Origin: Thiovulum sp. ES
GTDB lineage: Bacteria; Campylobacterota; Campylobacteria; Campylobacterales; Thiovulaceae
NCBI GenBank assembly: GCA_000276965.1
Contig: AKKQ01000003.1
Span: 462 to 64,461, forward strand
Direction: 5' to 3'
DNA: 64,000 nt
Shown piece by piece: positions 259 to 64,000 of this stretch (its first letter is position 1; every line of letters starts with the position of its first letter). The notes under the pieces were generated by a model, which saw nothing but the letters and a program-made list of their open reading frames with translations, ran no database searches and was not told the origin of the DNA. The position numbers and the translations under genes were made by a program.

Positions 259-1977
259 ATGATAGATGTCGAGAAAATTGTAAAAAGTAAATATCCCAAA
301 ATTGAGAAATATCCAAAAATTCTTTACAAGCCTTTTATTTTTTTCTTAAAGAGGTTTTTTCACGAAAAAGATATCAATGAGTTTTTGGCTGAAAGCAGTG
401 ATTTAGATGGATTTGATTTTATAGAATCTGTTCTTGACTATTTTAATTTTCGATACATGGCTTCAAACATCGAAAAAGAAAATATACCAACGGAGGGTCG
501 AGTGATGATTATTGCAAATCATCCGCTTGGTGCGTTGGATGCTCTTGCTCTTCTAAAGTTGGTAAGTGAAGTTCGGAAAGATATTAAAATTGTTGCAAAT
601 GATATGTTGTATTCTATTCCGCCGATGAGGTCCCTACTTTTACCAATTGACAATATGGAAAAACGATACACAAAAGAGAGTATAAAAGCCATTTATTCCT
701 CTTTAAAAAATGAAGAAGTTGTCATTATTTTTCCATCAGGTGAAGTTTCTCGTGCAAATCCAACAGGAATTAAAGACACAAAATGGAGAGATGGATTTTT
801 GAAATTTGCGAAAAAAACAGGAACTCCAATTCTCCCAATTTTTATAAAAGCTAGAAACTCATTCTCTTTTTACACACTTTCGTCAATCAATAAAAACTTT
901 TCTTCATTTATGCTTGTTGATGAAATGTTTAAGCAAAAGGATAAAGGTCTTCATTTCTCAATTGGAGGACTAATTCCAGCTGAAAACCTAAACTTTGGCG
1001 GTCTTGACACAAGCTCTACTGTTAAACTTCTAAAAAAGCATCTTTGGAAAATCTCAAAAGGCAAAAAAGGTATTTTTCAAACCCAAAAAGGAATTGCTCA
1101 TCCTGAAAGTCGCCAAGAATTAAAAAGAGAACTTTCTGAAACTTGCCAATTTATTGGAAAAACAAACGACCACAAAGATATTTATCTTTTTGAACATAGC
1201 GAAAGATCTATTATTTTAAAAGAGCTTGGGCGACTTCGAGAAGTTACATTTCGAAAAGTTGGCGAAGGTAGTGGAAAAAAACGAGACAAAGACAAATATG
1301 ATAAATATTACAAACATATAATTCTTTGGGACGATTATAATTTAGAGATTGTTGGCTCTTACAGAATAGGTGTTGTTTCTGAAATTGTTGAAAAGTTTGG
1401 TACAAGTGGTCTTTATACCTCTACACTCTTCCACTTTGGAGAAGAGTTCAAACCATATTTAGAAAACTCTATTGAACTTGGTCGAAGTTTTGTTCAACCT
1501 AAATATTGGGGAAGTCGTGCCTTGGACTCTCTCTGGTTTGGGATTGGTGCTTTTCTTCGTGCAAATCCTCAAATCAAATATATGTTCGGAACTGTTTCTC
1601 TCTCAAATTCACATCCAAAAGTCGCACAAGAGCAAATTATATATTTTTATCAAAACTTTTTTGGACAAAATGGAATTGTAGAATCCAAGAATAAAGTTTT
1701 AATTTCCGAGACCTCATCGCTAAAAAATACTTTTTCTGAAGAATCCTATTTAAAAAACATGGTCGTTCTAAAACGAAATCTCAAAGAACTAAATTTAACA
1801 ATTCCAACCCTATTTAAACAATATACTGAACTTTGTGAAAAAGGAGGGGTCAAATTTCTTGACTTTGGAGTTGATACAGATTTCAATAATGCTATCGATG
1901 GTTTTATTCTTGTTGATGTCCATTCTATTAAAGAAAATAAGCGAAAAAGATACATCGACAACGGTTTAGATTCTTAG
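259..1977 (+). CDS. Bifunctional acyltransferase, OlsF-like (N-terminal lysophospholipid-type O-acyltransferase fused to a C-terminal OlsB-like N-acyltransferase); putative ornithine/amino-lipid synthase
   Basis: 572 aa. The N-terminal half has acyltransferase motifs (IIANHPLGALDA, FPSGEVSR). The C-terminal half has the OlsB/GNAT-like pattern (LREVTFRKVGEGSGKKRDKDKYDKYYKHIILWD..LEIVGSYRI). Two-domain order and length match what I recall for OlsF. Confidence 0.6.
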   Translation: MIDVEKIVKSKYPKIEKYPKILYKPFIFFLKRFFHEKDINEFLAESSDLDGFDFIESVLDYFNFRYMASNIEKENIPTEGRVMIIANHPLGALDALALLKLVSEVRKDIKIVANDMLYSIPPMRSLLLPIDNMEKRYTKESIKAIYSSLKNEEVVIIFPSGEVSRANPTGIKDTKWRDGFLKFAKKTGTPILPIFIKARNSFSFYTLSSINKNFSSFMLVDEMFKQKDKGLHFSIGGLIPAENLNFGGLDTSSTVKLLKKHLWKISKGKKGIFQTQKGIAHPESRQELKRELSETCQFIGKTNDHKDIYLFEHSERSIILKELGRLREVTFRKVGEGSGKKRDKDKYDKYYKHIILWDDYNLEIVGSYRIGVVSEIVEKFGTSGLYTSTLFHFGEEFKPYLENSIELGRSFVQPKYWGSRALDSLWFGIGAFLRANPQIKYMFGTVSLSNSHPKVAQEQIIYFYQNFFGQNGIVESKNKVLISETSSLKNTFSEESYLKNMVVLKRNLKELNLTIPTLFKQYTELCEKGGVKFLDFGVDTDFNNAIDGFILVDVHSIKENKRKRYIDNGLDS

Positions 1978-1986
1978 AATTTTCTC

Positions 1987-2013
1987 TAAATTGTCTTTTT
2001 GTAAAGACGATAC
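1987..2013 (+). promoter_or_regulatory. Sigma28 (FliA)-type promoter upstream of the flagellin gene
   Basis: TAAA (1987-1990), a 15-nt spacer, then GACGATAC (2006-2013). The textbook sigma28 consensus is TAAA-N15-GCCGATAA. It lies 34 nt upstream of the ATG at 2047, and an AAGGG Shine-Dalgarno sits near 2034. Confidence 0.55.
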
Positions 2014-2046
2014 TATAAAGTAGATAAAAAATAAAGGGTTATATTT

Positions 2047-3694: not shown

Positions 3695-5890
3695 ATGGCA
3701 ACAGCAAAAACAACAAGTGCAAAAGAGAAAGCTTTAGAATCTGCTCTAAAAGAGATCGATAAGAAATTTGGAAAACATACCTTAATTAGAATTGGTGATA
3801 AAGAGATTGAGAAAATTCCGTCAATTAGTACGGGTTCGATCGGACTTGATTTATCATTAGGAATTGGTGGTTTGCCAGTTGGTAGAGTTATTGAGATTTA
3901 TGGACCAGAAAGTTCAGGAAAAACTACACTTTCATTACAAACAATTGCCGAAGCACAAAAAAAAGGTATGCGATGTGGATTTATCGATGCCGAACATGCA
4001 ATTGATATTCAATATGCAAAAAATTTAGGTGTTGATGTAGAAAATTTATATTTATCCCAACCAGACTACGGAGAACAAGCTTTAGAAATTACTGAAACAA
4101 TGGCAAGAAGTGGTGCTTTTGACCTCATCGTTATCGATTCCGTTGCGGCACTTGTTCCAAAAGTTGAGATTGAAGGAACAATTGAAGATCAGCAAGTTGG
4201 TGTTCAAGCTAGATTAATGAGTAAAGCACTTCGACGACTCGCTTCAGTTTTACACGATATGAATGCGACTGTGATTTTTATAAATCAATTACGACAAAAA
4301 ATAGGTGTTATTGGTTACGGGTGTTTCCATCATGACACACTTTTAAATTTTGCAGATGGTCGTTCACTTCCAATTGGTGAAGTTGTTGATAATAAAATTA
4401 AAGGTGAAGTTTTTTGTATCAATGAAAAAACAGGCGAAATCGAAACAAAACCTATTACAGCTTGGCACGATAATGGCAAAGTTGAAAAACATGAAGATTT
4501 TATACATTTCCAAACTCAGTCAATTAATGGTAGAGATAGATTTGGTTTTACAGCAACTCGAAAACATGAAATTCTTACAGATAGTGGATGGAAAACGGCA
4601 GAAGAAATTAGCTTTGAAGATAAATTAACTTCTAAATATTTAGAAACAGCGAATGGAACTTATGGGGAATTTTTAAGAGGTGTTTTTGTTGGAGATAGCA
4701 GAATTTCGATTAGAGATAAAAATACCGCAAATTTAAGACTTCAAGATAATTCAAATGCAGACTATGTAAATTGGAAACTTGATAAGTTGCAAAAATTTCT
4801 AAATTTCAATGAGTTGAAAGTTGAAAAAGGTTATCGATATGATTCTGAATTCAGTTATGAATTTGCAAAAATTAAAAGAGAACTTGGCGAACAAGATCCA
4901 ATTTATATGCTGGAAAATTATTCTCCTTTAAGTTTGGCAGTTTGGTATATGGATGATGGAAGCTACTATTCTGAAGACTATCACAGCAGAAGTGCTATTT
5001 CAATTGGACGATACAGAAATCAGACTCAAAAATTAAATGAGATTTTAGAGATTTTTAAATCTAAAACAGGCATTGATGAGGTAAGTATTCAAGATTCAAA
5101 ACTTCAATTTACAAAAAATGGAACAGATAAATTGGCAGAAATCATTTCAAAATATGTTCCCGACTCAATGCAATATAAATTGCCTAAAGATTTTAGAGGA
5201 AAATATGTTGATTTTGAACTAGAAAACAGTCCAAAATTGGTAACAGATTTTGTTGAAATTAAAGAGATTAGAGAAGCTTCTGACAGACAAATGAGAAATA
5301 AACGAAAATTTGATATTTCCATTGCGGACAACAAAAACTATATGGTTGGTGGTTCTCAAAATGGTGTAATTGTTCATAACAGTAACGAAACTACGACAGG
5401 GGGGAATGCACTTAAATTTTATGCTTCTATAAGACTCGATGTGAGACGAATTGCCAGTTTAAAAAATGGCGATGATATTATCGGAAATCGGACGAAAGTT
5501 AAAATTGTAAAAAACAAAGTTGCACCTCCTTTTAAAATTACTGAATTTGACATTATTTTTGGAAAAGGTGTTAGTAAAGTTGGTGAAGTGGTTGATTATG
5601 CCGTTAAATTTGATTTCATCGAAAAAAGTGGAGCTTGGTTCAGTTACAACGACAGAAAAATTGGACAAGGTCGAGAAAATGCGAAAAAATTTCTACTAGA
5701 TAATCCTGAAGTGATGAAAGAAGTCGAAGAAAAAGTTATTGCAAAATTGAAACCTGCTCCTGAAGAGATGAGTGAAGCTGAGAAAAAAGAGGCAATAAAA
5801 GAGAATGTTGATGAAACTTCAGAAGAGAAACCAAAAAAGACAACTCGAAAAAGAGCAACTAAAACAGAAGAAAAAAGTTCGGAAGAATGA
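3695..5890 (+). CDS. recA: Recombinase RecA interrupted by an in-frame intein (the extein totals about 378 aa and has a Lys/Glu-rich C-terminal tail)
   Basis: 731 aa. Walker A is GPESSGKTT. It also has FIDAEHA and [15 protein letters not shown] | intein | [23 protein letters not shown]...[12 protein letters not shown]. Confidence 0.95.
4322..5380 (+). mobile_element. RecA intein (353 aa) with a LAGLIDADG-type homing-endonuclease core
   Basis: Starts with the Cys codon TGT at 4322-4324, directly after ..GVIGYG. Ends ..GVIVHN (AAC 5378-5380), followed by Ser (+1). Block-B-like TRKH is present. LAGLIDADG-like motifs are [11 protein letters not shown] and [11 protein letters not shown]. Block F/G is [25 protein letters not shown]. 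The frame was checked against the recA start. Confidence 0.9.
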
Positions 5891-6057
5891 GAAATACTAT
5901 AATTCTTCTGTTTTTAGCAATTCCGCTTTTTGCATGTGAAACAAAAGAAATTTTTATTTGCGATGTAAATGAGACTATCGAGTCTCTCCCTGAAAATTTT
6001 GATGGTGATGAGGTCGATTTAGGAATTGCGGAAGAATTATTCCAATTTGAGAATTAG
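5887..6057 (+). CDS. Small putative lipoprotein (56 aa), below the ORF-track cutoff
   Basis: The ATG at 5887 overlaps the recA stop (ATGA). Sequence: [56 protein letters not shown]. It has a signal peptide with an LFAC lipobox-like end. The stop TAG is at 6055-6057, just before the queH ATG at 6060. Confidence 0.4.
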
Positions 6058-6059: not shown

Positions 6060-7112
6060 ATGCTTGTTCATATTTGTTGTAGTGTTGATAGCCACTTTTT
6101 TTTAGAATCCCTAAAAAGGGATTTTCCTGATAAAGAATTTGTTGGATTTTTCTATGATCCAAATATTCATCCATATAGCGAATATAAATTAAGACTTCTC
6201 GATGTTCGGCGAAGTTGTAAGATTTTGGATATTCCACTTATTGAGGGTGAGTATGATTATGAAAAATGGTTAAAGCAAGTTCATGGTTTAGAGGATGAAC
6301 CTGAAAAAGGGGAACGATGTAAAGTCTGTTTTGATAATCGTCTCGAAGTTAGTGTCAAAAAAGCAGTAGAACTTGGAAAAGATAGTTTTACAACTTCTCT
6401 TCTTGTTTCGCCAAAAAAATCACAAGATAGACTTTTAGAAATTGGAAATCAACTCGGAAAAGAGTATGGAATAGATTTTATTTTTAAAGATTATCGCTCA
6501 AGCGGTGGAATGCAAAAACAGGCGAAAACCGTAAAAAGCAATAATTTGTATCGCCAAGACTATTGCGGTTGTATGTTTGCTTTAAAAAAACAGAGAGAAC
6601 AGCAAGAACGAGAGCAAATTGAGACATACTCGTCAATTGGAAACGAGATTCTTCCCGCATCAATTGAAGAAAAATTTCACAACTACTCAAAAATGAAAAC
6701 ATGTTTTGAAGAGTCAAAAGAGAATATTTTAAATTATCGAATTCATAAAGGTCGAGTTTTGCACAAAAAAGAGGTCGTTCCCTCATATTTTCTGTTTTAC
6801 TCTTTTTCTGAACGAAATAGAATTTCTGGACGAATTGAAAGAATCGCTGATGAGGTCGCCTATTTAAATCGTGAAAGTGTAAAAATTATTACTATTTATT
6901 TTGTACGGAAATTCTTTGACGATAAAAAATTATCCCTCCCAAACTTACAAATCTCTGTTCAAAAACAGATTGAGTTGAGAGGTGTAATTGATAAAAATCC
7001 TTACTCTCTTTCTCCAATTATTGTTTTAAATGAAATTCCAGATGGCAAAGTTGATATTGAACTCGAAGCAAAAATCTTTCCTTCGATAGTCCAGAACTTT
7101 TCAGAAAATTAA
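6060..7112 (+). CDS. queH: Epoxyqueuosine reductase QueH (DUF208) with a C-terminal extension of about 170 aa of unknown function
   Basis: The N-terminal 180 aa or so carries DUF208 hallmarks: LVHICCSVDS, FFYDPNIHPYSEY, GERCKVCFDNRL, FTTSLLVSPKK, LYRQDYCGCMFAL. I did not recognise the rest (about residues 185-350). Confidence 0.7.
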   Translation: MLVHICCSVDSHFFLESLKRDFPDKEFVGFFYDPNIHPYSEYKLRLLDVRRSCKILDIPLIEGEYDYEKWLKQVHGLEDEPEKGERCKVCFDNRLEVSVKKAVELGKDSFTTSLLVSPKKSQDRLLEIGNQLGKEYGIDFIFKDYRSSGGMQKQAKTVKSNNLYRQDYCGCMFALKKQREQQEREQIETYSSIGNEILPASIEEKFHNYSKMKTCFEESKENILNYRIHKGRVLHKKEVVPSYFLFYSFSERNRISGRIERIADEVAYLNRESVKIITIYFVRKFFDDKKLSLPNLQISVQKQIELRGVIDKNPYSLSPIIVLNEIPDGKVDIELEAKIFPSIVQNFSEN

Positions 7113-7692: not shown

Positions 7693-8484
7693 TCAAACCA
7701 TAGAACTTTTGATTTCTGGAAGAGCTTTTTTGTAGCAACTATCTAAATTCCTATCAACAATGTAGAGAACTGCGCCATCAATTTTATTATGTTCAGCCAT
7801 ATCTTTTAAAATTTTCATGATAATTTTTGGTTCGAGACCTTTTCGGTACGGACGATTTTGGGCAAGAGCTTGAAAAATATCAGCAACCGCGACAATTCGA
7901 GCAAGAAGCGGAATCTCCTCTTTTCCCTTTTCAAAAAAGATTTCAACTCGATCTTTATCTTTTATAATATTGACTGGATCACTTTTTTGGAGAACTTTTA
8001 AGAAAGCGTCAATTAAATTGGTATAAAAAAGAGTGTTCCTATTTCCCTCAAGAATTTTCAAAACCTCATCAACAGTTCTTCCAGTTGCAATTAAAATATC
8101 AATTCTATCTGCAAGATATGTGATATTTGCTCTTTCACGAATAGAAATATCAGTTTTTTTTGGAAGTTCATTACAATGAGTGTGATGATAAAAAATTGTT
8201 GGTGCATATTTCTTAAAAATTGGTGTATCGATAAGTAATTTGCTTCCACGAACACAATGTTCATGACTATTTTCCCAATCAAGTTCATTGATAAGTTTTG
8301 CATGTGTTACAGTTGATGAGACTCCGCAATCGTGAAGAAGTCCCTCAAAAATAATATCGTTTATATCTTCTTCTGAATATCCAATCTCTTTAGCGATGAG
8401 GTGCGATAAAAAACTGACTCTCTTGCCATGAAAAATATCATCAATTCCAACATAGTCAAGTGCAAGTTGAGAGAGAATAAACAA
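7693..8484 (-). CDS. HD-domain protein, degenerate HD-GYP-like
   Basis: 263 aa with LLHDCG and HHTHCNELP (where HD-GYP proteins carry HHE..GYP), plus VAVADIFQALAQNRPYRKG. TTG start. Confidence 0.5.
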   Translation of the reverse strand: MFILSQLALDYVGIDDIFHGKRVSFLSHLIAKEIGYSEEDINDIIFEGLLHDCGVSSTVTHAKLINELDWENSHEHCVRGSKLLIDTPIFKKYAPTIFYHHTHCNELPKKTDISIRERANITYLADRIDILIATGRTVDEVLKILEGNRNTLFYTNLIDAFLKVLQKSDPVNIIKDKDRVEIFFEKGKEEIPLLARIVAVADIFQALAQNRPYRKGLEPKIIMKILKDMAEHNKIDGAVLYIVDRNLDSCYKKALPEIKSSMV

Positions 8485-8521: not shown

Positions 8522-9787
8522 CTATTTACAGTTTTGGATTTTTTCCCAATGTTCTTTAATTTCAGATTCTTCTGCTCCAAGATTTTGAATCACTTTTTGC
8601 ATTTCAACTTTTGCATCAGAACATTTTCTAATTTTATACAATCCCCAAGCAAGAGAATCAACAATATAAAAATTATCTGGTTCGAAAACCAATGCTTTTT
8701 TTACATATTCCAAACCATCTAAAATCCGAATATTATTTTGAATCATTAAATAACCAAGGTAATTATAAAATGTCGGATCATTTAATTCATTGACAACTTT
8801 TTCTAATTTCTCAATTATTGGTTCGACTCTAAATTTTGCTTCAAGATTTTCGTATTCAAAAATTGCATTTTGTGCCAAATAAATTGGCTCTTCACTCTCT
8901 TCATAGAGTCTTTTAGAGAGTTTAAAACCCTCTTCAAAATTTCGGTCTCTCATGTAAAGTCGAAGCAGAAGATCATCATCATATTTAGAATCTTTTAAAA
9001 ACTGTAAAAGTTTCTCGTTCTCACCAAAAGTATTTAAAATTTTTATAACTGTTTGAGCAATTTCAGGGTCTTCTGTTTTCTCATAAATTTCAGAATAGAC
9101 TTCTGTCGCTTTGATGTAATTTGCGGAAGTGAGAAGCATTTTTGCATAAATCAAAGATAATTCCAAATTTGTATTGTCTCTATTTGCTTTTTCTAAAAAA
9201 TCTAAAGCCTGATCTTTTTCATTCAATTTATTAAAAAGAAGTTTTGCAATTGCAATAGCGACCTCATCGCTATTTTTGACTTCATATGACTCTTTTAAAT
9301 ATTGGAGACTTTCATTAAAATCTCCCTTTTGAAAACTGATTTCAGCAAGAATTCGATAGTCAATATCTTTTTTTTCAGTAATTTCAGAAAGAGATAAATA
9401 TCCATTTTCTAAATCTCCAAGAGAGATGTAAGCAACTGAAACTTCTCGTAAATGCTTGTCATCTCGCACCATCTTTAATTCACTAAATTCACTAATTGTT
9501 TGTTCAAAAAGTGCAAGTGCATTCAAATTTTTTAAATACTCAAGCGAGTATTCACTGTCGCCAGTATCTTCAAAAAGTTTTTTGAAAATTACGGCACTTT
9601 CAACATATTCTCCTTTTGCTTGACCGTCAAGTGCAATTAGCAAAAGGAAATTTTCATTTGGAGTTGGTTTTCTCTTCTCCCTTTTCTCAATATCTTTTTC
9701 TATTGAAAACTCTGAGACCCGATTTGCATGAGCTGAGCAGTTTGAAAGAAAAATTACCGCTGAAATTGAAAGAAGATGTTTAACCAA
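8522..9787 (-). CDS. TPR-repeat lipoprotein
   Basis: 421 aa. The signal peptide ends in the lipobox FLSNC. It has repeated amphipathic helical TPR-like units ending ..ALVFEPDNFYIVDSLAWGLYK. Confidence 0.5.
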   Translation of the reverse strand: MVKHLLSISAVIFLSNCSAHANRVSEFSIEKDIEKREKRKPTPNENFLLLIALDGQAKGEYVESAVIFKKLFEDTGDSEYSLEYLKNLNALALFEQTISEFSELKMVRDDKHLREVSVAYISLGDLENGYLSLSEITEKKDIDYRILAEISFQKGDFNESLQYLKESYEVKNSDEVAIAIAKLLFNKLNEKDQALDFLEKANRDNTNLELSLIYAKMLLTSANYIKATEVYSEIYEKTEDPEIAQTVIKILNTFGENEKLLQFLKDSKYDDDLLLRLYMRDRNFEEGFKLSKRLYEESEEPIYLAQNAIFEYENLEAKFRVEPIIEKLEKVVNELNDPTFYNYLGYLMIQNNIRILDGLEYVKKALVFEPDNFYIVDSLAWGLYKIRKCSDAKVEMQKVIQNLGAEESEIKEHWEKIQNCK

Positions 9788-46820: not shown

Positions 46821-46824
46821 AAAG

Positions 46825-49545: not shown

Positions 49546-50673
49546 ATGGCTCTATTTGGTTCAGCTTCAAGTATCAACCTTGAAGATTTAATTCGTGAAA
49601 ATGAGAGTTTAAAGCATAAACTTAAGACAACGGAAGACGAAGTAACAAGACTACAAGGTGAAAACGAAAGATTAGAGAAGCGACTAAACACAAAAGGTGA
49701 AAGTTTCACTGATATTATGGTTTCTCTTGTAGAAGATCAAAATTTTAATATTAATGAAGCACTTGCGGATATGAAAGAGAGACTTGACGAAACAGTTGAT
49801 AAAGCTACTCAAGTTTTAAACGAAGCTCTTAGTATTAAAGACAGTGCAATTGATGCAAGTGATAATATTGAGCTAATAACGACAAACATGTCTGAGCTTG
49901 TTGAATTATCAAATGATTCAAACAGTTCAATTGAGTCTCTCTCTTCAAGAGCAACTGAAATTAACTCAATTATCTCTCTTATTAAAGATATTGCTGAGCA
50001 AACAAATCTACTTGCACTTAATGCTGCAATTGAAGCTGCTAGAGCTGGTGAGCATGGTCGAGGATTTGCAGTTGTTGCCGATGAGGTACGAAAACTTGCC
50101 GACCGAACTCAAAAAGCGATTGGTGAAATCTCAATTGTTATTCAAGCAATCCAACAAGAGATTCAAGATATTACTACTAAATCAGAAAGTATGCTTGAAA
50201 ATATGGAAACTGCAACAGAAAAAGTTAATAAGCTTGATGATGTTCTTTCAACTGCAATTAACTACTCTACTGAAATTGCTGAAACTCAAAATGTTGTTAG
50301 AAACCAAATTGTTGCTAAATTAATTAAAGTAGAGCATATTCAATACAAAATTTATGCATACCAAGCTATGTATGGACATTCACATATGAAACATATCGAA
50401 ACATTCAACCACTGTACTCTTGGAGGCTGGATGAATGCGGATAAAACAAGAAAAGAGTTTGCTAAATCAACTTCATTCTCAAGACTTGAATCTCCACACC
50501 GACAACAACATGATATTCTTGACAAGATTTCTGAACTATCAAAAGAGGGGAAACCAAACAAACAATTCCTTTCACTTGCAAGAGAGCTTGAAAGTTCTAC
50601 AAATATTGTATTTGAAACTCTCAATAAAGTTGTTGAAGAGAGAGAAAAACAGATAGAGAACGAGATTGTTTAA
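49546..50673 (+). CDS. Soluble methyl-accepting chemotaxis protein with a C-terminal CZB zinc-binding domain (TlpD-like)
   Basis: 375 aa with no TM segment. The MCP signalling core is [41 protein letters not shown]. The C-terminus has [10 protein letters not shown]....H..QH, typical of CZB. Confidence 0.8.
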
Positions 50674-52819: not shown

Positions 52820-52820
52820 A

Positions 52821-55293: not shown

Positions 55294-55980
55294 TTACCGC
55301 AGTTTGTAGCCGATTCCTCGAACGGACTCAATATATTTTTTTGAGCCATCTTCGTCAATTTTAGATTTTAGTCTTTTGACTGCAACATTTACACTTTTTT
55401 CATTGCAATGCTCATCAAAGACTCCACAATTCCAAACAACATCAAGAAGATAATCACGATTTAAGACATTCCCAATATTTTCCATAAAAACTTGTAATAG
55501 CTTAAACTCTAGCTTTGTAAGTTTTACCTCATCGCTACCAATTTTTACTTCATATTTTTCTAGATTTATTGAAATATCTCGATGAGTCATTGTGTTATTG
55601 AAGCCAATTTTTCCAGTTCGTCGGAGAATTGCCTCAACTCTCATAAGCAACTCATCATTATCAAAAGGTTTTGTGATGTAGTCATCTCCACCTCTTGAGA
55701 AACCTTCTAACTTCTCCTCTTTGCTGTTTTTTGCTGTTAGAAATATAACTGGTGTTTTATCTCCTGATTTTCTCAACTGCTCTACAAATTCAGTTCCCTC
55801 AACACAAGGCAAATTTCTATCAACAATCATAAGTGAAAAATCACCGTCATAAAGAAAAGTATGAACTTGCTTTGAATCTGGTAGTGCCGTTACTCGATAT
55901 CCCTCTTTCTTTAAGAGAAAATCCAATAACTCTAAAAGGTCTTTATCATCATCAATAACAAGTATTTTGCTTTTTTTCAT
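55294..55980 (-). CDS. OmpR/PhoB-family response regulator
   Basis: 228 aa. The receiver is ILVIDDD...MIVDRNLP..FLTAK..DDYITKPF. The winged-helix C-terminus is LTKLEFKLLQVF....VAVKRLKSKI...IESVRGIGYKL. Confidence 0.9.
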   Translation of the reverse strand: MKKSKILVIDDDKDLLELLDFLLKKEGYRVTALPDSKQVHTFLYDGDFSLMIVDRNLPCVEGTEFVEQLRKSGDKTPVIFLTAKNSKEEKLEGFSRGGDDYITKPFDNDELLMRVEAILRRTGKIGFNNTMTHRDISINLEKYEVKIGSDEVKLTKLEFKLLQVFMENIGNVLNRDYLLDVVWNCGVFDEHCNEKSVNVAVKRLKSKIDEDGSKKYIESVRGIGYKLR

Positions 55981-55985: not shown

Positions 55986-57086
55986 TTATTTTCCGTCGTT
56001 AATTTTTTCATCAAGAATAATGTCGAGAATCTCAAATACAGAACTACTTGCTCTCTCCATTTTTCTAAATGTATTTATCACTTCTTCAAAATTTATCGCA
56101 TCTTGATTTATAAGAGCAAAAACATCTTTTGTCGCATTATGAACAGAGCCATGTGGTGCTTCCAAATCTGGATATTTGCTTGTGTGTGAGAAATGCTCCA
56201 ATCCTTCTCCTTTTTCATACCATCTACCAAGTCGGCAAGAGTGGTGATCCACAAATTTAAATACCTGTTTTTTCTGTGCAACTGAATCATAAGTATTGAA
56301 TTTCCAAATAACATGATCTATTTTTGCCAAAGATAAGAAAATTCTATCTGTTGTATATTCAAAATTTAAGAATGATTGTCTTACATCTTTTATGTTACTT
56401 CTTAGGTCTGTATCAAATTCACTGAACTTTTCATGAAAATGATTTATTGTTTCAACCGTTTCAGAGGCTTTTTTATTAACAGAGCCAACATCTTGTTTCA
56501 TTGAAGTTAGAGCAAGATTAATGTCTCCAATTGCTTTTTGAGTTTTGTCTGCAAGTTTCCGAACCTCATCAGCAACAACCGCAAATCCACGACCATGCTC
56601 ACCTGCTCTTGCTGCTTCAATTGCAGCATTTAGTGCAAGTAAATTTGTCTGTTCTGAAATATCTTTTATCAAAGTTAAAATTCCATTGATGTCTTCTGTT
56701 CTCTCCAAAAGCATCCCAGAAGCCGTAAATGTATCTGATGACATTGTTTCAAGGTCTGTAATATTTGTTGTGATTTCTGAAAAACCTGTTGCCAAATGAC
56801 TCACATGATCAAGCATTGAATGAGAATCTTCCAAGTTCTTTTTTCCAGACGAAACAGCATCAACAAGGTCGCTTTGAACATCCATCAAGCTCCCCTTTAC
56901 ATGCTCATTCTGAAAACGAAGAACCTTATAGAATCCCTCTCCTTCATCATTGTATTTCAATCTTCGAATCTCTTCTTCGAGACTGTCAATTCTTTGCAGT
57001 AAATCTTCTTCTCTTGTTCTTAGAGATGTGTTTTCTCTCTCAAGTTGCTTAATATAAAACTTATCTTGTTTGTTTAAAGCTATCAT
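55986..57086 (-). CDS. Soluble methyl-accepting chemotaxis protein with a CZB domain (second TlpD-like paralog)
   Basis: 366 aa. [41 protein letters not shown], and the C-terminus has [10 protein letters not shown]...H. It ends 6 nt before the response-regulator gene. Confidence 0.8.
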
Positions 57087-58322: not shown

Positions 58323-58341
58323 GATGAGGTCAGACCTCATC
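58323..58341. repeat. Perfect 19-nt palindrome made of two inverted copies of the abundant 9-mer (candidate terminator)
   Basis: GATGAGGTC A GACCTCATC. It lies between the stop TAA at 58316-58318 (+ gene) and the stop at 58340-42 of the minus-strand ORF. Confidence 0.85.
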
Positions 58342-58660
58342 AAGCCTTTTTATCTAATTTGTGTCTTGGTTCAAGAAGTGATTTCAAATTTTTGATATTT
58401 CGCTCGACTTTCACCATGTTTGTTTTAAGATTATTCCGAAAATCCACAAGCAAAATTAGAATTTCTCTAACAAGAAATTGTGCTTTTCGCATATCTTCTA
58501 TGCTTTGAAATTCTGGTAATTCACCTGCTGAAAGAGTTTCTAATCTATTAAAATCTTCAACAACAATAGCGGATTTGACAGCATCAAACCACTCTTTACT
58601 ACTCTGCTTCTTGCTCTTTTGTTTCTGCTGAATTGATTCCAGTTTCTTCTCTCCATGCAT
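58340..58660 (-). CDS. Small helical protein downstream of fliS (positional FliT-like candidate)
   Basis: 106 aa. It occupies the position after flaG-fliD-fliS where Helicobacter/Campylobacter carry a small chaperone-like ORF. It overlaps fliS by 62 nt, and no alternative in-frame start exists downstream of the overlap. Confidence 0.4.
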   Translation of the reverse strand: MHGEKKLESIQQKQKSKKQSSKEWFDAVKSAIVVEDFNRLETLSAGELPEFQSIEDMRKAQFLVREILILLVDFRNNLKTNMVKVERNIKNLKSLLEPRHKLDKKA

Positions 58661-59057: not shown

Positions 59058-60437
59058 TTATTTAGATGATTCCATGTCGATCATCATTTGAATTGAGTTA
59101 AATTGTTGATTCCACTGTGCAATCAATGTATCCGCCTGAATAAATTGTTCAGCCATTCGTGCATATCGTCCGTCAAGCATCGCAATATTTTTTTCCCGTT
59201 CATCATTCAATCGGTCTTGTTCAGTTGTAATATTATTAGAAATATTATTTAAAATCCCGTCTGAATTTGTGTACATTTCCATAATTTGATTTAAATCATA
59301 GAAAACACCATCTTCGTGAGTTGTTATTCCACGATCTTCGACATCTTGTCCGAGAAAGAAATTCTCAATATTTTCTGGGTCTTCATTAAATTTTTCAAGA
59401 AAAGTTTCGCTGTCAAATTCAAGAGAACCAACATTATTAAGTGAGATTCCAAATTCAATTAAAGAACGATTTTCTGAATCCATCGATAAAAGTTTTCGCT
59501 TAATTGTTTGAGTGATTGCCGTGATATTATTATCACCCTGAAAAGCTCCAGTCTCATCACCTTCTTGATCGAATTTTGTCATCTCTTCAATTAAAACTGA
59601 AAGCTCATTGTAAGCATCAACAAAAGATTGGACTTGCAACATAATACTATTTGTGTCTGGTTCGATTGTGATTTCAATTGGATTTTCATTCACTTGAGTT
59701 AATTCCAATTCAATTCCAACAACTAAATCGGTAATTGAATTACTATTTCTTGTGATTGGAGTTCCGTTAAAAAGAAATTCCGAATCAACCCCTTTTTGAA
59801 TGTGATTTTCTTCAGCAGAAAAGTTTGTAGAAAGACCCTCTTCAGAAACAATAATTTCTGAATCATCGCCAGTGTCATTACTTGTAATTGTTAGTCGATA
59901 TTCAGAGTCGCCAGTTTTTAAAACTTTCGCAGTAACAGGAGCAGAAGAATCATTGATCAAATCTTTCAAATCCGTCATAGTTGTTGATGAGGTCAAATCA
60001 AAAGAGTATTCTATTCCACCAACTGTAATACTCATTGTTGTATCTTCACTCGCAACTGTTTCAGTCAAAGATGAAAATCCATCGCTTTGAACAATATCTT
60101 GTTTCGCAAGTTGCAAAGTTTCAACAGTGATAGTTTGTGGAGAAACACCTTTATCTATTGATAAATTTATACCCTCTTCAGAAACATAAGCACTTCTTTG
60201 CAGAAATAACATTTCATCATTAAGAGATTCTACTGTTGAGCTAAAAGCAGTTACTTTTTCAGAAATAAGACCGAAAGCTTCAGACCGAGCAGCCGCACCT
60301 TCAATATTTCTATCAATAGGATCAATAATCACGGCATCATCGGCAGCACGAAGTTTATCAAGAGTCTCTTGACTTAATCCCGTGCTTGTTCCAGTAACCG
60401 CTTCAGAACCGAGTCCAATTAGACCTGTTGAAGCCAT
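59058..60437 (-). CDS. fliD: Flagellar filament cap protein FliD
   Basis: 459 aa. The N-terminus is LGSEAVTG...LDKLRAADDAVIIDPIDR. The C-terminus is LDGRYARMAEQFIQADTLIAQWNQQFNSIQ. It sits between flaG and fliS. Confidence 0.85.
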   Translation of the reverse strand: MASTGLIGLGSEAVTGTSTGLSQETLDKLRAADDAVIIDPIDRNIEGAAARSEAFGLISEKVTAFSSTVESLNDEMLFLQRSAYVSEEGINLSIDKGVSPQTITVETLQLAKQDIVQSDGFSSLTETVASEDTTMSITVGGIEYSFDLTSSTTMTDLKDLINDSSAPVTAKVLKTGDSEYRLTITSNDTGDDSEIIVSEEGLSTNFSAEENHIQKGVDSEFLFNGTPITRNSNSITDLVVGIELELTQVNENPIEITIEPDTNSIMLQVQSFVDAYNELSVLIEEMTKFDQEGDETGAFQGDNNITAITQTIKRKLLSMDSENRSLIEFGISLNNVGSLEFDSETFLEKFNEDPENIENFFLGQDVEDRGITTHEDGVFYDLNQIMEMYTNSDGILNNISNNITTEQDRLNDEREKNIAMLDGRYARMAEQFIQADTLIAQWNQQFNSIQMMIDMESSK

Positions 60438-60890: not shown

Positions 60891-61673
60891 TTAAATTTGT
60901 AAAAGTTCGATTTGTTTGTTCCGAAAAATCGCAATTTCTTTGAAACCAATATCCTTTAAAAGTCTATCAATTTCACTCTTAAACATTCCAACTTGGGTCG
61001 GAGAGTGGGCATCGCTACTTGTTGTTATTGGAATATTAAAATCGCGAACAAGTTCTAAAATTTCTCGACTTGGGTAAGTTTCTGCAATAGGTTTTCGGAG
61101 ACCAGATGCATTTATCTCAACCGCCATTTCTGATTTTTTGATCGCTTTTAAAGTATCCTGAACTAAATCACCAATTCTGTTTTTCTTTGGTAGAAATTTA
61201 AAAACTTTAAGCAAATCAAGGTGTCCAGCAATTTGAAAAAGTCCGCTTTTTGCCATATTTTCCATTTCTGAAAAATAGACTTTCCAAAGTTCATCAATAT
61301 CAACATTCTCATAGTTTCCCATAAATTCAGGATTATCAAAACCCCAACCTTGTAAAAAATGAATTGAGCCGATGAGGTAATCGACATTGCTTTTTAAAAC
61401 TCTGTTATCGTGATATTGTGGGAGATAATCGACTTCAAAACCTTTAAGAATTTCAATTTTTCCGCGATATTTTTCGGCGACCTCATCGATCAATCCAAAA
61501 TATTTATCGATTTCAGAAAAATCCATTCGATAAGTTGGATCAAAATTCATCGGAGCATGATCTGTAAAACCAAAAAACTTTATACCTTTTTCAATCGCTC
61601 GTTCAACATATTGGAAAGGCTCTCCCTCCGCATGATGACAAAGAGTTGTGTGATTGTGTAAATCTGCTATCAA
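60891..61673 (-). CDS. PHP-family histidinol phosphatase
   Basis: 260 aa with IADLHNHTTLCHHAEGEP, FTDHAP and SSDAHSP. Confidence 0.75.
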   Translation of the reverse strand: MIADLHNHTTLCHHAEGEPFQYVERAIEKGIKFFGFTDHAPMNFDPTYRMDFSEIDKYFGLIDEVAEKYRGKIEILKGFEVDYLPQYHDNRVLKSNVDYLIGSIHFLQGWGFDNPEFMGNYENVDIDELWKVYFSEMENMAKSGLFQIAGHLDLLKVFKFLPKKNRIGDLVQDTLKAIKKSEMAVEINASGLRKPIAETYPSREILELVRDFNIPITTSSDAHSPTQVGMFKSEIDRLLKDIGFKEIAIFRNKQIELLQI

Positions 61674-62859: not shown

Positions 62860-62898
62860 ATTCTATCAAAAATAGGTTTTCTGAAAATTTGATTTTTT

Positions 62899-62915
62899 GT
62901 CGGAAAAATTCCGAC
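62899..62915. terminator. Hairpin family copy E (variant) with T-runs on both sides
   Basis: TTTTTT GTCGGAA AAA TTCCGAC TTTTTTT, just 3' of the SulP-type gene. Confidence 0.65.
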
Positions 62916-62966
62916 TTTTTTTAGTAGTTGTAAGCAACTTTGTAATTTGGATCATCTTCGTTATAT

Positions 62967-64000
62967 TCACAAAAAGGACCAGCATTTTTGTAGAGTAATT
63001 TTGCAATCTTCAGAAAGGTGTCGGATTGTCAACTTTTTTCCATTTTCACTATATTTTTTTGTAATCGAGTCAATTGCTTCAACTCCAGAAATATCCATAA
63101 CTCTTGCTCGTTTAAAATCAAGAACGACCTCATCAGGATCGTTTTTTAAATCAAATTGCTCAAAAAATGAAGTTGTCGAGCCAAAAAATAGAGGACCTTC
63201 AAATTCGTATATTTTTCTGTTTTCTTCCATTCGAGTTCGTGAAAATACTTTAGCATGTTGCCAAGCAAAAACAAGAGCAGAAATAATAATTCCCGTGATG
63301 ACGGCAATTGCCAAATCAAAGAAAATTGTAATAACTGTTACGGCAATAAGAACAAAACGATCACTATTTTGCATATATTTTATTCGATTTCCGCTTTCCC
63401 ACTCAAAAGTTCCAATTGAAACCATAAACATAATTCCAACAAGCACGGCAACAGGAATAATTGCGATGAGGTCAGTCAAAACAATCACAAACAAAATTAG
63501 TAAAATTGAAGCAACAAGTGCGGAAAGTCGTCCCCAGCCACCATTTGAGAAATTGATAATTGATTGTCCAATCATCGCACAACCTGCCATTCCACCAAAA
63601 GCACCGCATGTTACATTTCCAACTCCTTGAGCTACACATTCCTGATTTCCGCTACCTCGTTTTCCTCCCATTTCATCAAGAACTGAAAGAGTTAAAAGAG
63701 ATTCAATCAAACCAACAAGTGCTACAAGAACCGCATATGGAAGAACCATCAAAATTGTTTCAAGTGAAATTTGAACTTCTGGAATTGAGAAAGTTGGCAA
63801 TGAACCTGAAATATCAGCTAAATCTCCAACTCGTTTTGTGTCTAAATCAAAAAGAACTACAATTAAAGTAATTGTGATAATTGCAACAAGTCCAGAAGGA
63901 ACAGCTTTTGAAAGTTTTGGAAAAAATTCCACAATCACCATTGTTAAAGCAACAAGAGAATACATAATCCAATTTTCGCCCTCAAAAAGCGGAAATTGTG
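62967..64000 (-). CDS. SulP-family anion permease with a C-terminal STAS domain; the N-terminus lies beyond the window end
   Basis: It has hydrophobic TM segments, GQSIINFSNGG, and a C-terminal STAS (IYEFEGPLFFGSTTSF...VVLDFKRARVMDISGVEAID). The frame is open to position 64000. Confidence 0.8.
   Translation of the reverse strand, partial: QFPLFEGENWIMYSLVALTMVIVEFFPKLSKAVPSGLVAIITITLIVVLFDLDTKRVGDLADISGSLPTFSIPEVQISLETILMVLPYAVLVALVGLIESLLTLSVLDEMGGKRGSGNQECVAQGVGNVTCGAFGGMAGCAMIGQSIINFSNGGWGRLSALVASILLILFVIVLTDLIAIIPVAVLVGIMFMVSIGTFEWESGNRIKYMQNSDRFVLIAVTVITIFFDLAIAVITGIIISALVFAWQHAKVFSRTRMEENRKIYEFEGPLFFGSTTSFFEQFDLKNDPDEVVLDFKRARVMDISGVEAIDSITKKYSENGKKLTIRHLSEDCKITLQKCWSFL

Follow-up and report, generated by a model that had tools for sequence, protein, structure and literature searches.

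The window, the whole 64,000-nt stretch analysed here from the uncultured Thiovulum sp. ES, carries recA and dnaE (each with an intein part), hemA, pyrC, hisIE, fliD, a response regulator gene, two genes for CZB-type chemoreceptors, and McrBC together with a type I restriction fragment. Throughout this stretch we observe a single short word, the 8-mer GATGAGGT/ACCTCATC, in 55 copies (29 on the + strand and 26 on the - strand), which corresponds to one copy in about 1.2 kb. The 9-mer GATGAGGTC/GACCTCATC accounts for 37 sites (18 on + and 19 on -) and the 11-mer CGATGAGGTCG for 14 (4 on + and 10 on -). This recount is identical to the preliminary description in all three totals and in every coordinate, the minus-strand 9-mer starts listed there being, as expected, the 8-mer starts minus 1. 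The word copies are given below by coordinates, strand, sequence and context, followed by the one inverted pair.

624..631, +, CGATGAGGTCC, sense, ORF 259..1977(+)
1711..1718, -, CGATGAGGTCT, antisense, ORF 259..1977(+)
4122..4129, -, CGATGAGGTCA, antisense, recA 3695..5890(+)
5075..5082, +, TGATGAGGTAA, sense, recA intein part 3695..5890(+)
6007..6014, +, TGATGAGGTCG, intergenic
6849..6856, +, TGATGAGGTCG, sense, ORF 6060..7112(+)
8063..8070, -, TGATGAGGTTT, sense, ORF 7693..8484(-)
8395..8402, +, CGATGAGGTGC, antisense, ORF 7693..8484(-)
9261..9268, -, CGATGAGGTCG, sense, ORF 8522..9787(-); also in L087
12004..12011, +, TGATGAGGTCA, antisense, ORF 10804..12399(-); also in L087
13690..13697, -, CGATGAGGTCG, antisense, ORF 12687..14825(+); also in L087
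14370..14377, +, AGATGAGGTCG, sense, ORF 12687..14825(+); also in L087
15154..15161, -, CGATGAGGTCG, sense, dnaE 14853..19907(-); also in L081/L087
16473..16480, +, CGATGAGGTCA, antisense, dnaE; kept in 5/5 dnaE orthologues compared
18688..18695, -, CGATGAGGTTC, sense, dnaE intein part; also in L082
19329..19336, +, GGATGAGGTCG, antisense, dnaE; also in L082
19633..19640, -, AGATGAGGTCG, sense, dnaE; same DEV peptide in L082 encoded GATGAAGTT
20633..20640, -, CGATGAGGTCG, sense, hemA 19996..21300(-); also in L087
22074..22081, +, CGATGAGGTGC, antisense, ORF 21300..22214(-)
22659..22666, +, CGATGAGGTCG, antisense, ORF 22283..22960(-); also in L087
23772..23779, -, CGATGAGGTCA, antisense, mcrC-like 22925..24058(+); also in L087
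25455..25462, +, CGATGAGGTTT, sense, mcrB-like 24039..26096(+)
26516..26523, +, CGATGAGGTCG, sense, pyrC 26171..27166(+); also in L087
26899..26906, -, CGATGAGGTGC, antisense, pyrC; also in L087
29155..29162, -, CGATGAGGTCG, antisense, ORF 27642..30374(+)
30483..30490, +, TGATGAGGTCG, sense, ORF 30384..30725(+)
31727..31734, -, CGATGAGGTCA, antisense, ORF 31303..32259(+)
31843..31850, +, CGATGAGGTCG, sense, ORF 31303..32259(+)
32633..32640, +, CGATGAGGTCG, antisense, ORF 32390..32788(-)
34936..34943, -, CGATGAGGTCG, antisense, ORF 33912..35738(+)
35253..35260, +, CGATGAGGTCA, sense, ORF 33912..35738(+)
38591..38598, -, CGATGAGGTCA, sense, ORF 38374..39588(-)
39673..39680, -, CGATGAGGTCG, sense, ORF 39585..40235(-)
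39810..39817, +, TGATGAGGTTG, antisense, ORF 39585..40235(-)
42080..42087, +, CGATGAGGTCT, sense, ORF 41462..43330(+)
42348..42355, -, CGATGAGGTCG, antisense, ORF 41462..43330(+)
43667..43674, +, CGATGAGGTAG, sense, hisIE 43346..44023(+)
45084..45091, +, CGATGAGGTGC, antisense, ORF 44823..45719(-)
45415..45422, -, CGATGAGGTCG, sense, ORF 44823..45719(-)
48203..48210, +, CGATGAGGTCA, antisense, ORF 46825..48894(-)
48581..48588, -, CGATGAGGTGC, sense, ORF 46825..48894(-)
50080..50087, +, CGATGAGGTAC, sense, MCP 49546..50673(+), conserved ADEVRKLA motif
52858..52865, -, TGATGAGGTCG, sense, ORF 51017..52867(-)
53928..53935, +, CGATGAGGTTC, antisense, ORF 52821..55187(-)
54421..54428, -, TGATGAGGTTG, sense, ORF 52821..55187(-)
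55047..55054, +, CGATGAGGTGA, antisense, ORF 52821..55187(-)
55526..55533, -, CGATGAGGTAA, sense, response regulator 55294..55980(-)
56563..56570, -, TGATGAGGTTC, sense, MCP 55986..57086(-), conserved ADEVRKLA motif
58323..58330, +, GGATGAGGTCA, intergenic, left arm of inverted pair
58334..58341, -, TGATGAGGTCT, intergenic, right arm of inverted pair
59986..59993, +, TGATGAGGTCA, antisense, fliD 59058..60437(-)
61371..61378, +, CGATGAGGTAA, antisense, ORF 60891..61673(-)
61480..61487, -, CGATGAGGTCG, sense, ORF 60891..61673(-)
63127..63134, -, TGATGAGGTCG, sense, ORF 62967..63965(-)
63465..63472, +, CGATGAGGTCA, antisense, ORF 62967..63965(-)
58323..58352, no strand assigned, inverted pair GATGAGGTC-A-GACCTCATC + AAGCCTTTTT, between convergent ORFs, terminator-like

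Enrichment and coding context of the word

The strong enrichment claimed earlier is borne out in the window against all null models, with 37 copies of the 9-mer versus 0.21 expected from dinucleotide shuffling (100 rounds, never more than 1 copy), and order-3 Markov expectations of 2.0, 0.36 and 0.02 for the 8-mer, 9-mer and 11-mer, respectively. Under a codon-aware null of 500 synonymous-codon shuffles within genes, coding sequences are predicted to hold 8.2±2.4 copies of the 8-mer (max 17) and 1.2±1.1 of the 9-mer (max 6), versus 53 and 35 observed. From k = 7 to 12, each top-enriched k-mer is a sub-string or super-string of the GATGAGGT word. Its core is very sharp: the 24 one-mismatch variants sum to 23 copies versus 55 exact ones, and the variants GATGAGGA/C/G have 0 copies in the window. 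The consensus in the source genome is [C/T]GATGAGGT-C-g, with preferred flanks that lengthen the motif to 10-11 nt.

Nearly all copies are intragenic (52/55), 28 in sense and 24 in antisense to transcription. They are read as D-E-V (26), x-L-I (19), T-S-S (4), M-R-S (2) and P-H (1), which leaves the earlier frame tally intact for x-L-I, T-S-S and P-H and corrects it for D-E-V (given as about 28) and M-R-S (given as 1). Furthermore, 27 of 31 DEV tripeptides are encoded by GATGAGGTN and 12 of 17 DLI tripeptides by GACCTCATC, in both cases with minority codons, and DEV itself is 4.6-fold over-represented (31 observed versus 6.8 expected). This is in line with the report that USS and DUS double the tripeptides they encode (Findlay & Redfield).

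Since the copies divide almost evenly between sense and antisense and the synonymous shuffle falls far short of the observed count, the word is fixed at the level of DNA, and not by protein sequence or codon use, as the preliminary description had argued. An artefact of protein motifs or codon usage, or a leftover from some dispersed repeat or mobile element, deserves practically no credence. The peptides DEV and xLI are both common and tolerant, and the copies at 50080 and 56563 do sit, as noted before, in the conserved ADEVRKLA motif (DEVR) of the MCP signalling domain, but the host proteins are unrelated, the codons used are minority codons, similarity around the copies is confined to 8-11 nt with dissimilar flanks beyond, and no repeat or RNA family overlaps any copy in the window. 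Orientation balance, synonymous shuffle and unlike flanks together refute this candidate.

The intergenic inverted pair described earlier is confirmed at 58323/58334, where an 8-bp stem with a 3-nt loop (-11.1 kcal/mol) is followed by a U-run; a pair of this terminator-like form counts in favor of an uptake role. Intergenic sequence makes up 6.8% of the window and holds 3 of the 55 copies (about 3.7 expected). The lack of an intergenic excess, the single inverted pair in 64 kb and the absence of competence genes from the window speak against an uptake role.

Distribution in relatives and other Campylobacterota

Ten contigs from relatives, two of them from Ca. Thiovulum stygium and Ca. T. karukerense, carry 0.37-0.80 copies/kb (4 in 6.5 kb, 13 in 16.3, 13 in 23.9, 17 in 21.8, 12 in 23.8, 8 in 21.4, 9 in 17.7, 10 in 18.7, 12 in 19.3 and 9 in 21.8), and both gene-relative orientations are used in all ten. 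Across 80 loci of other Campylobacterota we find 54 copies in 1.37 Mb (0.04/kb) and no comparably dense word. A comparison of flanks, as suggested earlier, reveals preferences that differ between lineages: CGATGAGGTCG in the source genome, GG(C/T)GATGAGGT(T) in L083 and TGATGAGGTT in L095. The word is thus a trait of the Thiovulum clade with lineage-specific flanks, or "dialects".

With respect to orthologues, species differ in whether they use the word to encode the same DEV/DLI peptides of dnaE, and one copy is kept in all five orthologues compared. The window was also compared with the sister species L087, at 90% nucleotide identity, and each of the 11 copies present in L087 has a counterpart in the window (P = 2.7e-4). 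The proposed check of word against residues shows that the word is kept at 11 of 13 copies with conserved peptide (P = 0.014). In these comparisons, copies turn over at synonymous sites.

Strand alternation and spacing

The balance of strands (29:26) without a switch point along the window agrees with the earlier claim of no top/bottom skew and speaks against polar words of the KOPS type and of the classical, skewed Chi type. Strand skew is likewise absent from every relative contig. The description of the word as orientation-neutral holds in number (29:26, and 28:24 in genes) but not in arrangement, which is non-random. Adjacent copies lie on opposite strands in 40 of 54 neighbour pairs in the window, and in 11 of 12 and 14 of 16 pairs in two independent relative contigs (combined P = 2.6e-6). 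Same-strand copies are evenly spaced (CV 0.44-0.50), are never less than 585 bp apart, leave a largest gap of 4.6 kb and amount to about 1 per 2.3 kb for each orientation, whereas copies on opposite strands occur independently of each other (12 close pairs versus 9.3 expected). When all copies are pooled, they too are distributed more regularly than expected by chance (CV 0.68, P = 0.0016), with 2-5 copies in each 4-kb bin.

Alternation with short-range exclusion on the same strand is a new finding. Control contigs show neither property, be it those carrying Neisseria DUS (132 opposite, 126 same) or those with Pasteurellaceae USS (67 opposite, 121 same). Alternation is not expected if double-stranded DNA is recognised regardless of orientation; exclusion and alternation indicate that the word is read strand-specifically, and this fits a Chi-like signal as well as an uptake signal acting at the level of single strands.

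These patterns also bear on the idea that the word is a by-product of methylation and repair without a signalling role, a modification target continually restored by very-short-patch-type repair and so accumulating, the explanation suspected for the HIP1 palindrome of cyanobacteria. The sharp core with its scarce near-miss variants, the clade specificity and the active restriction-modification environment shown by McrBC and the type I fragment would suit such an origin. Repair bias would not, however, give even spacing or same-strand exclusion, the word is not palindromic, and all repair-driven effects known to us stay below its roughly 27-100 fold enrichment with a reshaped proteome, and we regard this origin as very improbable.

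A Chi-like signal is the main rival of an uptake signal, although we consider it rather unlikely. Single-stranded 5'-GATGAGGT-3' would be read by a translocating AddAB (RecBCD-type) helicase-nuclease, which at the word would halt degradation and begin RecA loading. With breaks arising anywhere and resected both ways, each orientation would be needed at regular short intervals, and word-less alleles would be resected and copied from a word-bearing template, a gene-conversion drive that might, speculatively, be amplified if the giant cells are polyploid. Strand- and direction-specific reading defines Chi and directly predicts such orientation-specific redundancy, in agreement with the same-strand gaps, the independence of opposite strands and the alternation. 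The 8-nt core equals E. coli Chi in length, the per-orientation density lies within the range reported for Chi in AT-rich Firmicutes, and annotations of Thiovulum genomes include AddA and RecB-family genes, so that on gene content a Chi-like role is equally possible. That no Chi is known for any Campylobacterota, e.g., H. pylori, also counts in its favor. The absence of skew does not, since all characterised Chi sequences are, to our knowledge, skewed toward the leading strand. Chi sequences are also not known to be nearly as strongly enriched, and scarce one-mismatch variants and flanks extending the motif to 10-11 nt fit a Chi poorly. AddAB is believed to occur in other Campylobacterota as well, yet the 80 loci analysed from them lack a comparably dense word, and the biased-conversion drive itself is conjectural.

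Another strand- or direction-specific transaction is less probable still. The word might be a nicking or relaxase-type site from which single-stranded chromosomal DNA is donated, the pac-like point at which a gene-transfer agent or a headful packaging machine starts, or a tag of self recognised by a translocating defence nuclease. Exclusion and per-strand spacing agree with any machine that starts at the word and then moves in a single direction over a few kb. The largest gap between same-strand copies would be compatible with a small packaging or transfer unit, and clade specificity fits a lineage-specific machine. Against this, neither the window nor the relatives' loci hold relaxase, terminase or GTA-like genes, we know of no packaging or nicking site at such density inside genes, and viral contigs scanned for the inverted pair gave chance-level matches only, with no word-rich virus.

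A candidate uptake signal and its known counterparts

Tentatively, and at somewhat less than even confidence, we favor a role of the word in DNA uptake or transformation, similar to that of DUS but with recognition on single strands; it would be a genus-wide mark of "self-DNA" in Thiovulum-type Campylobacterota. Published Thiovulum genomes are equipped with complete type IV pilus gene sets, and ComEA, ComEC, ComFC and DprA appear in their annotation tables; in L094, a prepilin-type protein adjoins dnaE. Word-bearing donor DNA may be favored in natural transformation (type IV pilus, ComEA, ComEC, DprA, RecA), and biased recombination (molecular drive) would then spread new copies until nearly every recombining fragment has one, overriding codon preference and adding Asp-Glu-Val and x-Leu-Ile to proteins. 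Unlike classical DUS and USS, the word would be read on one strand only, probably during transport or protection of the single strand, and each strand would then need its own copy every ~2.3 kb. Such reading would result in same-strand repulsion, opposite-strand indifference and alternating orientations. The classical double-strand receptor model misfits, because the controls do not alternate and USS orientation is irrelevant to uptake in published work; thus, an unprecedented recognition at the single-strand level must be assumed.

Within the searchable literature, Neisseriaceae and Pasteurellaceae are the only groups for which sequence-specific uptake is described, in support of the view in the preliminary description that no such uptake word has been described for Campylobacterota; for C. 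jejuni, methylation-based discrimination is described. An uptake signal or a Chi-like signal would be equally new for Campylobacterota.

The DUS-like reading proposed at the outset retains the DNA-level word, density, balanced counts, clade dialects, DEV inflation, even spacing and pilus/Com genes, and is at odds with the alternation, the lack of an intergenic excess and the single inverted pair, both intergenic copies and inverted pairs being more prominent in Neisseria and Haemophilus than in the Thiovulum window. DEV is inflated by the Thiovulum word as tripeptides are by USS and DUS, and the overall density lies within the DUS/USS range. Even spacing, reported for USS, is common to both, and DUS spacing matches fragment length in published work. 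The working mode proposed here is likened to that of the uptake sequences of Neisseriaceae and Pasteurellaceae.

Abundance of the word and its effect on proteins

A recount of the window reproduces exactly the counts and positions of the preliminary description. The 8-mer GATGAGGT or its reverse complement ACCTCATC occurs 55 times (29 forward, 26 reverse), with 37 copies matching the 9-mer GATGAGGTC, split 18/19 between the strands, and 14 matching the 11-mer CGATGAGGTCG. At the window's G+C content of 32.5%, an order-3 Markov model predicts 2.0, 0.36 and 0.02 copies of the 8-, 9- and 11-mer, respectively, and dinucleotide-preserving shuffles (n = 100) give an expectation of 0.21 for the 9-mer, with a maximum of 1. 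The top-ranked k-mers of the window for k = 7 to 12 are all fragments or extensions of this one word, in agreement with its initial description as hyper-abundant. In the logo of the 55 copies, the 8-nt core is invariant, the 5' flank base is preferentially C (38/55; T in 13/55), and the 3' flank has C at the first position (37/55) and then G (25/55), with no further position beyond this C-core-C-G clearly belonging to the motif. The 24 one-mismatch variants of the core sum to only 23 copies in the window, mainly AT-rich background words, and the variants GATGAGGA, GATGAGGC and GATGAGGG have 0 copies each.

The window is ordinary chromosomal DNA, with products including OlsF, flagellin, RecA, QueH, HslV, L9, an RNA helicase, an ADP-forming acyl-CoA ligase, DnaE and HemA; McrBC, PyrC, YbeY, a hybrid kinase, ProB, a futalosine-pathway decarboxylase, HisIE and FliR; and two chemoreceptors and FliS/FliD/FlaG. 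The loci to which we refer individually are as follows.

Loci of the window
3695-5890: recA (RecA, 731 aa), with an intein
14853-19907: dnaE (DnaE, 1684 aa), with an intein
22925-26096: pair of McrC-like and McrB-like restriction genes; GC is low here (0.29), and L087, the sister species, has the pair conserved in synteny
44823-46120: Mur ligase (MurE-type) that appears split into a 99-aa N-terminal piece with P-loop (45821-46120) and the 298-aa rest (44823-45719); a sequencing error, a frameshift or pseudogene status may account for this
46234-46500: small ORF
46547-46735: small ORF with a Cro/C1-like HTH
49546-50673 and 55986-57086: paralogous chemoreceptors with MCPsignal and CZB zinc-binding domains
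57248-58318: type I HsdR N-terminal fragment protein

Fifty-two copies of the word lie inside ORFs, 28 sense and 24 antisense. They are read mostly in two frames, D-E-V in 26 sense copies and x-L-I in 19 antisense copies (together 45/52); the frame xGA-TGA is barred by its stop codon. Among the 31 DEV tripeptides of the window, 27 are encoded by GATGAGGTN and 17 by GATGAGGTC, with GAG accounting for only 30% of Glu and GTC for only 11% of Val codons, and 12 of the 17 DLI tripeptides are encoded by GACCTCATC, a combination of three minority codons. Composition predicts 6.8 DEV tripeptides, and counts of DDV, EEV, DEI, DEL and EDV equal expectation. When synonymous codons are shuffled within genes, the 8-mer falls to 8.2±2.4 copies versus 53 observed in CDS, and the 9-mer to 1.2±1.1 versus 35, so that the density of this short, specific word, far above both the Markov and the codon-aware expectation, is of the kind known from uptake sequences. 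Sense/antisense balance, codon choice and synonymous shuffle thus agree in ruling out a protein-motif or codon artefact, as had been argued from the sequence, and we consider the chance that artefacts of any kind explain the word to be negligible. Since the word exceeds the synonymous shuffle and DEV is inflated, it is the DNA word that has shaped the proteins and not the reverse. Such coding reshaping, by frame preference and tripeptide inflation, is expected of an uptake sequence, and is in line with the work of Findlay and Redfield, in which encoded tripeptides were approximately doubled by uptake sequences. In the two chemoreceptors, a copy coincides with the conserved peptide ADEVRKLA; these are the sole copies plausibly held by protein constraint.

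Distribution and turnover among relatives

Uncultured Campylobacterota supply the DnaE homologues nearest to that of the window (62-85% identity), and DnaE of ordinary Sulfurimonas, Sulfuricurvum and Sulfurovum reaches at most about 59%. All ten contigs around these closest homologues are enriched in the core, at 0.37-0.80 copies per kb (order-3 Markov expectation 0.45-1.0 per locus in L093, L094, L095, L099 and L100), with both sense and antisense copies in every locus.

Word copies in contigs of Thiovulum-clade relatives
L081: 4 in 6.5 kb
L082: 13 in 16.3 kb
L083: 12 in 23.8 kb
L086 (JAMJTX, Ca. Thiovulum karukerense; Bizic et al. 2022, PMC9938260): 8 in 21.4 kb
L087 (sister species): 13 in 23.9 kb
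L093: 9 in 17.7 kb
L094: 10 in 18.7 kb
L095: 12 in 19.3 kb
L099: 17 in 21.8 kb
L100 (CP091137.1, GCA_021582295.1, Candidatus Thiovulum stygium strain Movile): 9 in 21.8 kb

The identities of L100 and L086 indicate that the word-bearing clade is Thiovulum plus close relatives. Other Campylobacterota carry 54 copies in 80 loci (1.37 Mb; 0.04 per kb), with no locus enriched; these loci are among the matches listed to an MqnL-type decarboxylase query, all at ≤56% identity, from genera including Sulfurovum, Arcobacter, Sulfurimonas, Sulfuricurvum, Sulfurospirillum, Nitratifractor and Campylobacter, and they serve as the negative control. Flanking bases vary between lineages, with C-core-C-(G/A) in the window, L082, L087 and L099, GG(C/T)-core-(T) in L083 and T-core-T in L095, and this constant core with drifting flanks resembles the "dialects" of DUS. 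A word common to relatives, with lineage variants, and missing from neighbouring families is what is expected of an uptake sequence.

A literature search for the word sequence returned primer-type matches only. In two metagenome scans, an orphan 622-aa protein used as query had no match, and a HisIE query gave three distant loci, none of them word-enriched. Scanning viral contigs for the inverted pair gave 92 matches of mixed GC content that look like chance, and no word-rich virus.

We also observe other repeated words in further loci. Sulfuricurvum sp. MLSB (L055) has 8 copies of ATCTCTTCG in 21.8 kb, on a single strand throughout, and in another Sulfuricurvum sp. (L053) the overlapping AAGAGATCG occurs 7 times, 6 of them on one strand; this could be a skewed word or a Glu-Glu-Ile codon effect. 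AACACGCAA, found 7 times (5 forward, 2 reverse) over 17.8 kb of a Sulfurimonas MAG (L052), may be another lineage-specific over-represented word. In a further locus (L010), a tandem half-site CTGTGACGCAAACTGTGACGC, repeated at 13677-13709, 16799-16831 and 18110-18142, looks like a regulator operator.

At the level of single sites, a codon alignment of five dnaE orthologues has one DLI copy (GACCTCATC) kept in 5/5 while adjacent synonymous sites vary. Other dnaE copies are lineage-specific, with orthologues often differing at synonymous positions only: DEV is encoded by GATGAGGTC in the window versus GATGAAGTT in L082, and DLI by GACCTCATC in the window, GACCTAATC in L081 and GATTTGATA in L086. 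The sister species L087 is syntenic with the window, at 84-98% amino-acid, 90% nucleotide and 80% third-codon-position identity. In aligned genes, 11/11 of its copies are common to the window, versus 47% full conservation for random 8-mers (P = 2.7 × 10⁻⁴), and at peptide-conserved sites the word is retained in 11/13 cases versus 51% expected (P = 0.014). Synonymous divergence between the two is variable (0.60-0.97), with no tie to word positions found in this comparison. With respect to the inteins, which are based on an NCBIfam intein N-terminal match and on Pfam Intein_splicing in relatives, RecA (377 aa) and DnaE (1302 aa) of L087 are intein-free, and the DnaE intein is present in L082 and Ca. 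T. karukerense (L086); each of the two inteins of the window contains one copy of the word.

Strand arrangement and spacing

Strand counts are balanced in the window (29:26) as well as in the relatives, with no switch point by cusum test, as expected of an uptake sequence, which has equal strands and no replication-linked skew. Neither the leading-strand skew of Chi, given the alternation in the window and the balance of independent contigs, nor the more than 85% replication co-orientation of KOPS/SRS is observed, and cusum and permutation tests show no skew or switch point, which argues against a polar word (KOPS or classical Chi); the GC skew of the window follows gene orientation and transcription and hence gave no replication direction.

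The word had been characterized as orientation-neutral, which holds for the strand counts but not for their order, in which the strands alternate. The strand switches at 40/54 neighbour steps of the 8-mer in the window versus 27.4 expected (P = 4.5 × 10⁻⁴), at 28/36 for the 9-mer alone (P = 0.001), and at 11/12 (P = 0.007) and 14/16 (P = 0.0045) in two contigs of a more distant relative with other gene content (Fisher's combined P = 2.6 × 10⁻⁶). In the 15 genes with at least two copies, all 19 neighbouring pairs are opposite. Deeper Thiovulum relatives show weak, non-significant alternation overall (32 opposite versus 22 same), with 14/15 neighbour pairs opposite below 1 kb (P = 5 × 10⁻⁴).

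Each strand on its own carries copies more evenly spaced than random, with coefficients of variation of 0.50 for forward (P = 2 × 10⁻⁴) and 0.44 for reverse copies (P < 5 × 10⁻⁵) and same-strand gaps of 585 to 4557 bp in the window. With both strands combined the coefficient is 0.68 (P = 0.0016), and no 4-kb bin has fewer than 2 or more than 5 copies. Neighbour gaps below 400 bp comprise 12 opposite and 0 same-strand pairs. The 12 close opposite pairs are not in excess (9.3±2.3 expected), which rules out attraction between inverted copies as the source of alternation, and a single inverted pair in 64 kb forms a terminator-like hairpin. Alternation is thus an effect of same-strand exclusion: because close gaps are all opposite without attraction, the orientations behave as two independent, self-avoiding series. 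Unlike in an uptake sequence with interchangeable orientations, only same-strand copies exclude each other. Copies of both orientations are distributed uniformly along genes (KS P = 0.85 and 0.21), with no difference between sense and antisense copies, which rules out a transcription-linked role and indicates that alternation is not tied to transcription.

As controls, 120 viral or prophage contigs each for Neisseria DUS and Pasteurellaceae USS were put through the identical count with close inverted pairs removed. In these prophage-type contigs, which were seeded by inverted pairs and are not whole chromosomes, DUS show no alternation (132 opposite versus 126 same), and USS (L313-L432) show a same-orientation excess (67 opposite versus 121 same, P = 1 × 10⁻⁴), the reverse of Thiovulum, which may stem from co-oriented phage genes together with USS frame preference.

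Among the longer word-free stretches is one of 2.8 kb (45423-48202), the longest being 3.3 kb between 35253 and 38591. It contains the two small ORFs at 46234-46500 and 46547-46735 and may be a small acquired module.

Reading of the word and likeness to known systems

As closely spaced copies are redundant only when they share a strand, the reader would act on one strand or in one direction. Published work in Haemophilus found orientation immaterial to uptake, and if a surface receptor bound double-stranded DNA regardless of orientation, the orientations would be interchangeable and the alternation would not arise. Two mechanisms would fit the pattern, a transformation signal acting after strand separation or a Chi-like AddAB signal, and under either one a second same-strand copy nearby gains nothing, which would lead to even spacing per strand.

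We tentatively favor, by analogy with known uptake systems, a transformation signal, possibly recognized in transforming DNA after its strands separate. Either donor strand may enter and recombine, so each strand would need its own copy. This reading is consistent with density and enrichment of DUS/USS magnitude, the reshaped proteome and existing dialects, the lack of replication-type skew, the one inverted pair as a terminator-like hairpin, and spacing as even as published for USS and expected from drive models. To our knowledge, complete type IV pilus sets are unusual among Campylobacterota. Published Thiovulum genomes have such complete sets, and their annotations list ComEA, ComEC, ComFC and DprA, which would fit a transformation signal; none of these DNA-uptake genes (type IV pilus, ComEA/ComEC, DprA) lies within the 64-kb window. 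However, the function is predicted from sequence, uptake specificity at the single-strand level has no precedent known to us, and an intergenic excess is absent. As a separate observation, a 169-aa protein directly 3' of dnaE in L094 (8688-9197) matches PF07963, the prepilin N-terminal methylation motif, above cut-off (28.3 bits) and is a candidate pilin or pseudopilin.

Somewhat less probable, in our view, is a Chi-like signal, recognized as single-stranded DNA by AddAB moving off a break, with two resection directions making both orientations necessary. Chi is by nature read strand-specifically, Thiovulum annotations include AddA and RecB-family genes, and no Chi is known in the literature for Campylobacterota. 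Nevertheless, every characterized Chi that we know of is skewed with replication, known Chi are less enriched and less sharp than the Thiovulum word, and the motif reaches 10-11 nt. The other Campylobacterota sampled lack such a word though they are thought to carry AddAB, which again favors the transformation signal. Another strand-specific transaction, such as nicking or donation, packaging or a defence self-marker, appears improbable, and a by-product of repair or methylation very improbable.

The view that no uptake word had been described for Campylobacterota agrees with the literature searched, which has sequence-specific uptake for Pasteurellaceae and Neisseriaceae only and methylation-based discrimination for C. 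jejuni; the Thiovulum genome paper (PMC9938260) does not mention competence or transformation. What is new here is the architectural feature, alternation with same-strand exclusion, and a new phylum for a hyper-abundant, putative self-DNA word. Sequence-tagged self-DNA recognition for transformation is so far known from two proteobacterial families only; the Thiovulum-clade signal is as strong as DUS/USS and adds a previously unreported strand architecture that narrows the mechanism to strand-specific reading. Both leading explanations are testable, as word-dependent uptake or transformation or as word-dependent AddAB switching. In addition, the word is of practical use as a marker by which metagenomic contigs can be assigned to Thiovulum, and molecular-drive models that derive spacing from fragment length could be tested in this natural system. 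A bolder and rather doubtful proposal is that a third family of transformation-specificity sequences arose independently in Thiovulum, whose phylum has none known, and that it is recognized in single-stranded form, when the strands separate or later, for example at ComEC, ComFC or DprA or by a protecting factor, with each strand carrying its own regular series. If true, no uptake or transformation signal before it would have had a strand-specific genomic architecture, and the word would give access, through sequence, to gene exchange in a giant sulfur bacterium that is uncultured.

By sequence, the core GATGAGGT lies outside both the Neisseriaceae DUS (GCCGTCTGAA and AT-DUS) and the Pasteurellaceae USS (AAGTGCGGT / ACAAGCGGT) families. 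Like the word, DUS are non-palindromic, 10-12 nt long and present at about 1 per kb, with balanced strands, a conserved core with lineage flanks (dialects), copies inside genes, occasional inverted pairs as terminator hairpins, spacing near recombination tract length and hosts with type IV pili. DUS differ in their unrelated sequence and phylum, in an intragenic share of about 35% versus 95% for the word, which has its lone inverted pair, and in lacking, in the control contigs, the alternation and same-strand exclusion of the word; furthermore, DUS have a known receptor, the minor pilin ComP, whereas for the word an uptake role is predicted by analogy. USS share with the word a 9-nt core at about 1 per 1.2 kb, a largely intragenic location (65% in ORFs), frame preferences that inflate encoded tripeptides, even spacing and no replication skew. 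Their sequence is unrelated, their AT-rich flanking tracts are not seen around the word, and their neighbours tend to the same orientation in the controls whereas the word alternates. One-mismatch USS are common in Haemophilus; the corresponding forms of the word are nearly absent.

Chi sites (RecBCD/AddAB) are, like the word, short (5-8 nt), asymmetric, over-represented words of genome identity, read from one direction on one strand as the per-strand spacing of the word implies, but known Chi are replication-skewed and far less enriched. We know of no even spacing or alternation described for Chi. The RAATTY methylation mark of C. jejuni (CtsM), the sole known self-DNA discrimination for uptake in Campylobacterota, consists in methylation of a short motif that is AT-rich and common, is not over-represented and has no signature of genomic accumulation. 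Cyanobacterial HIP1 (GCGATCGC) is likewise a hyper-abundant intragenic octamer of unsettled function, found about once per kb; it is palindromic, whereas the word differs from its reverse complement and alternates between strands. KOPS and SRS, the FtsK- and SpoIIIE-guiding octamers, and other architecture-imparting sequences are also over-represented and asymmetric, with KOPS/SRS more than 85-90% co-oriented with replication. The word thus departs from DUS and USS in the interchangeability of orientations, from Chi and KOPS in skew and from HIP1 in its asymmetry.
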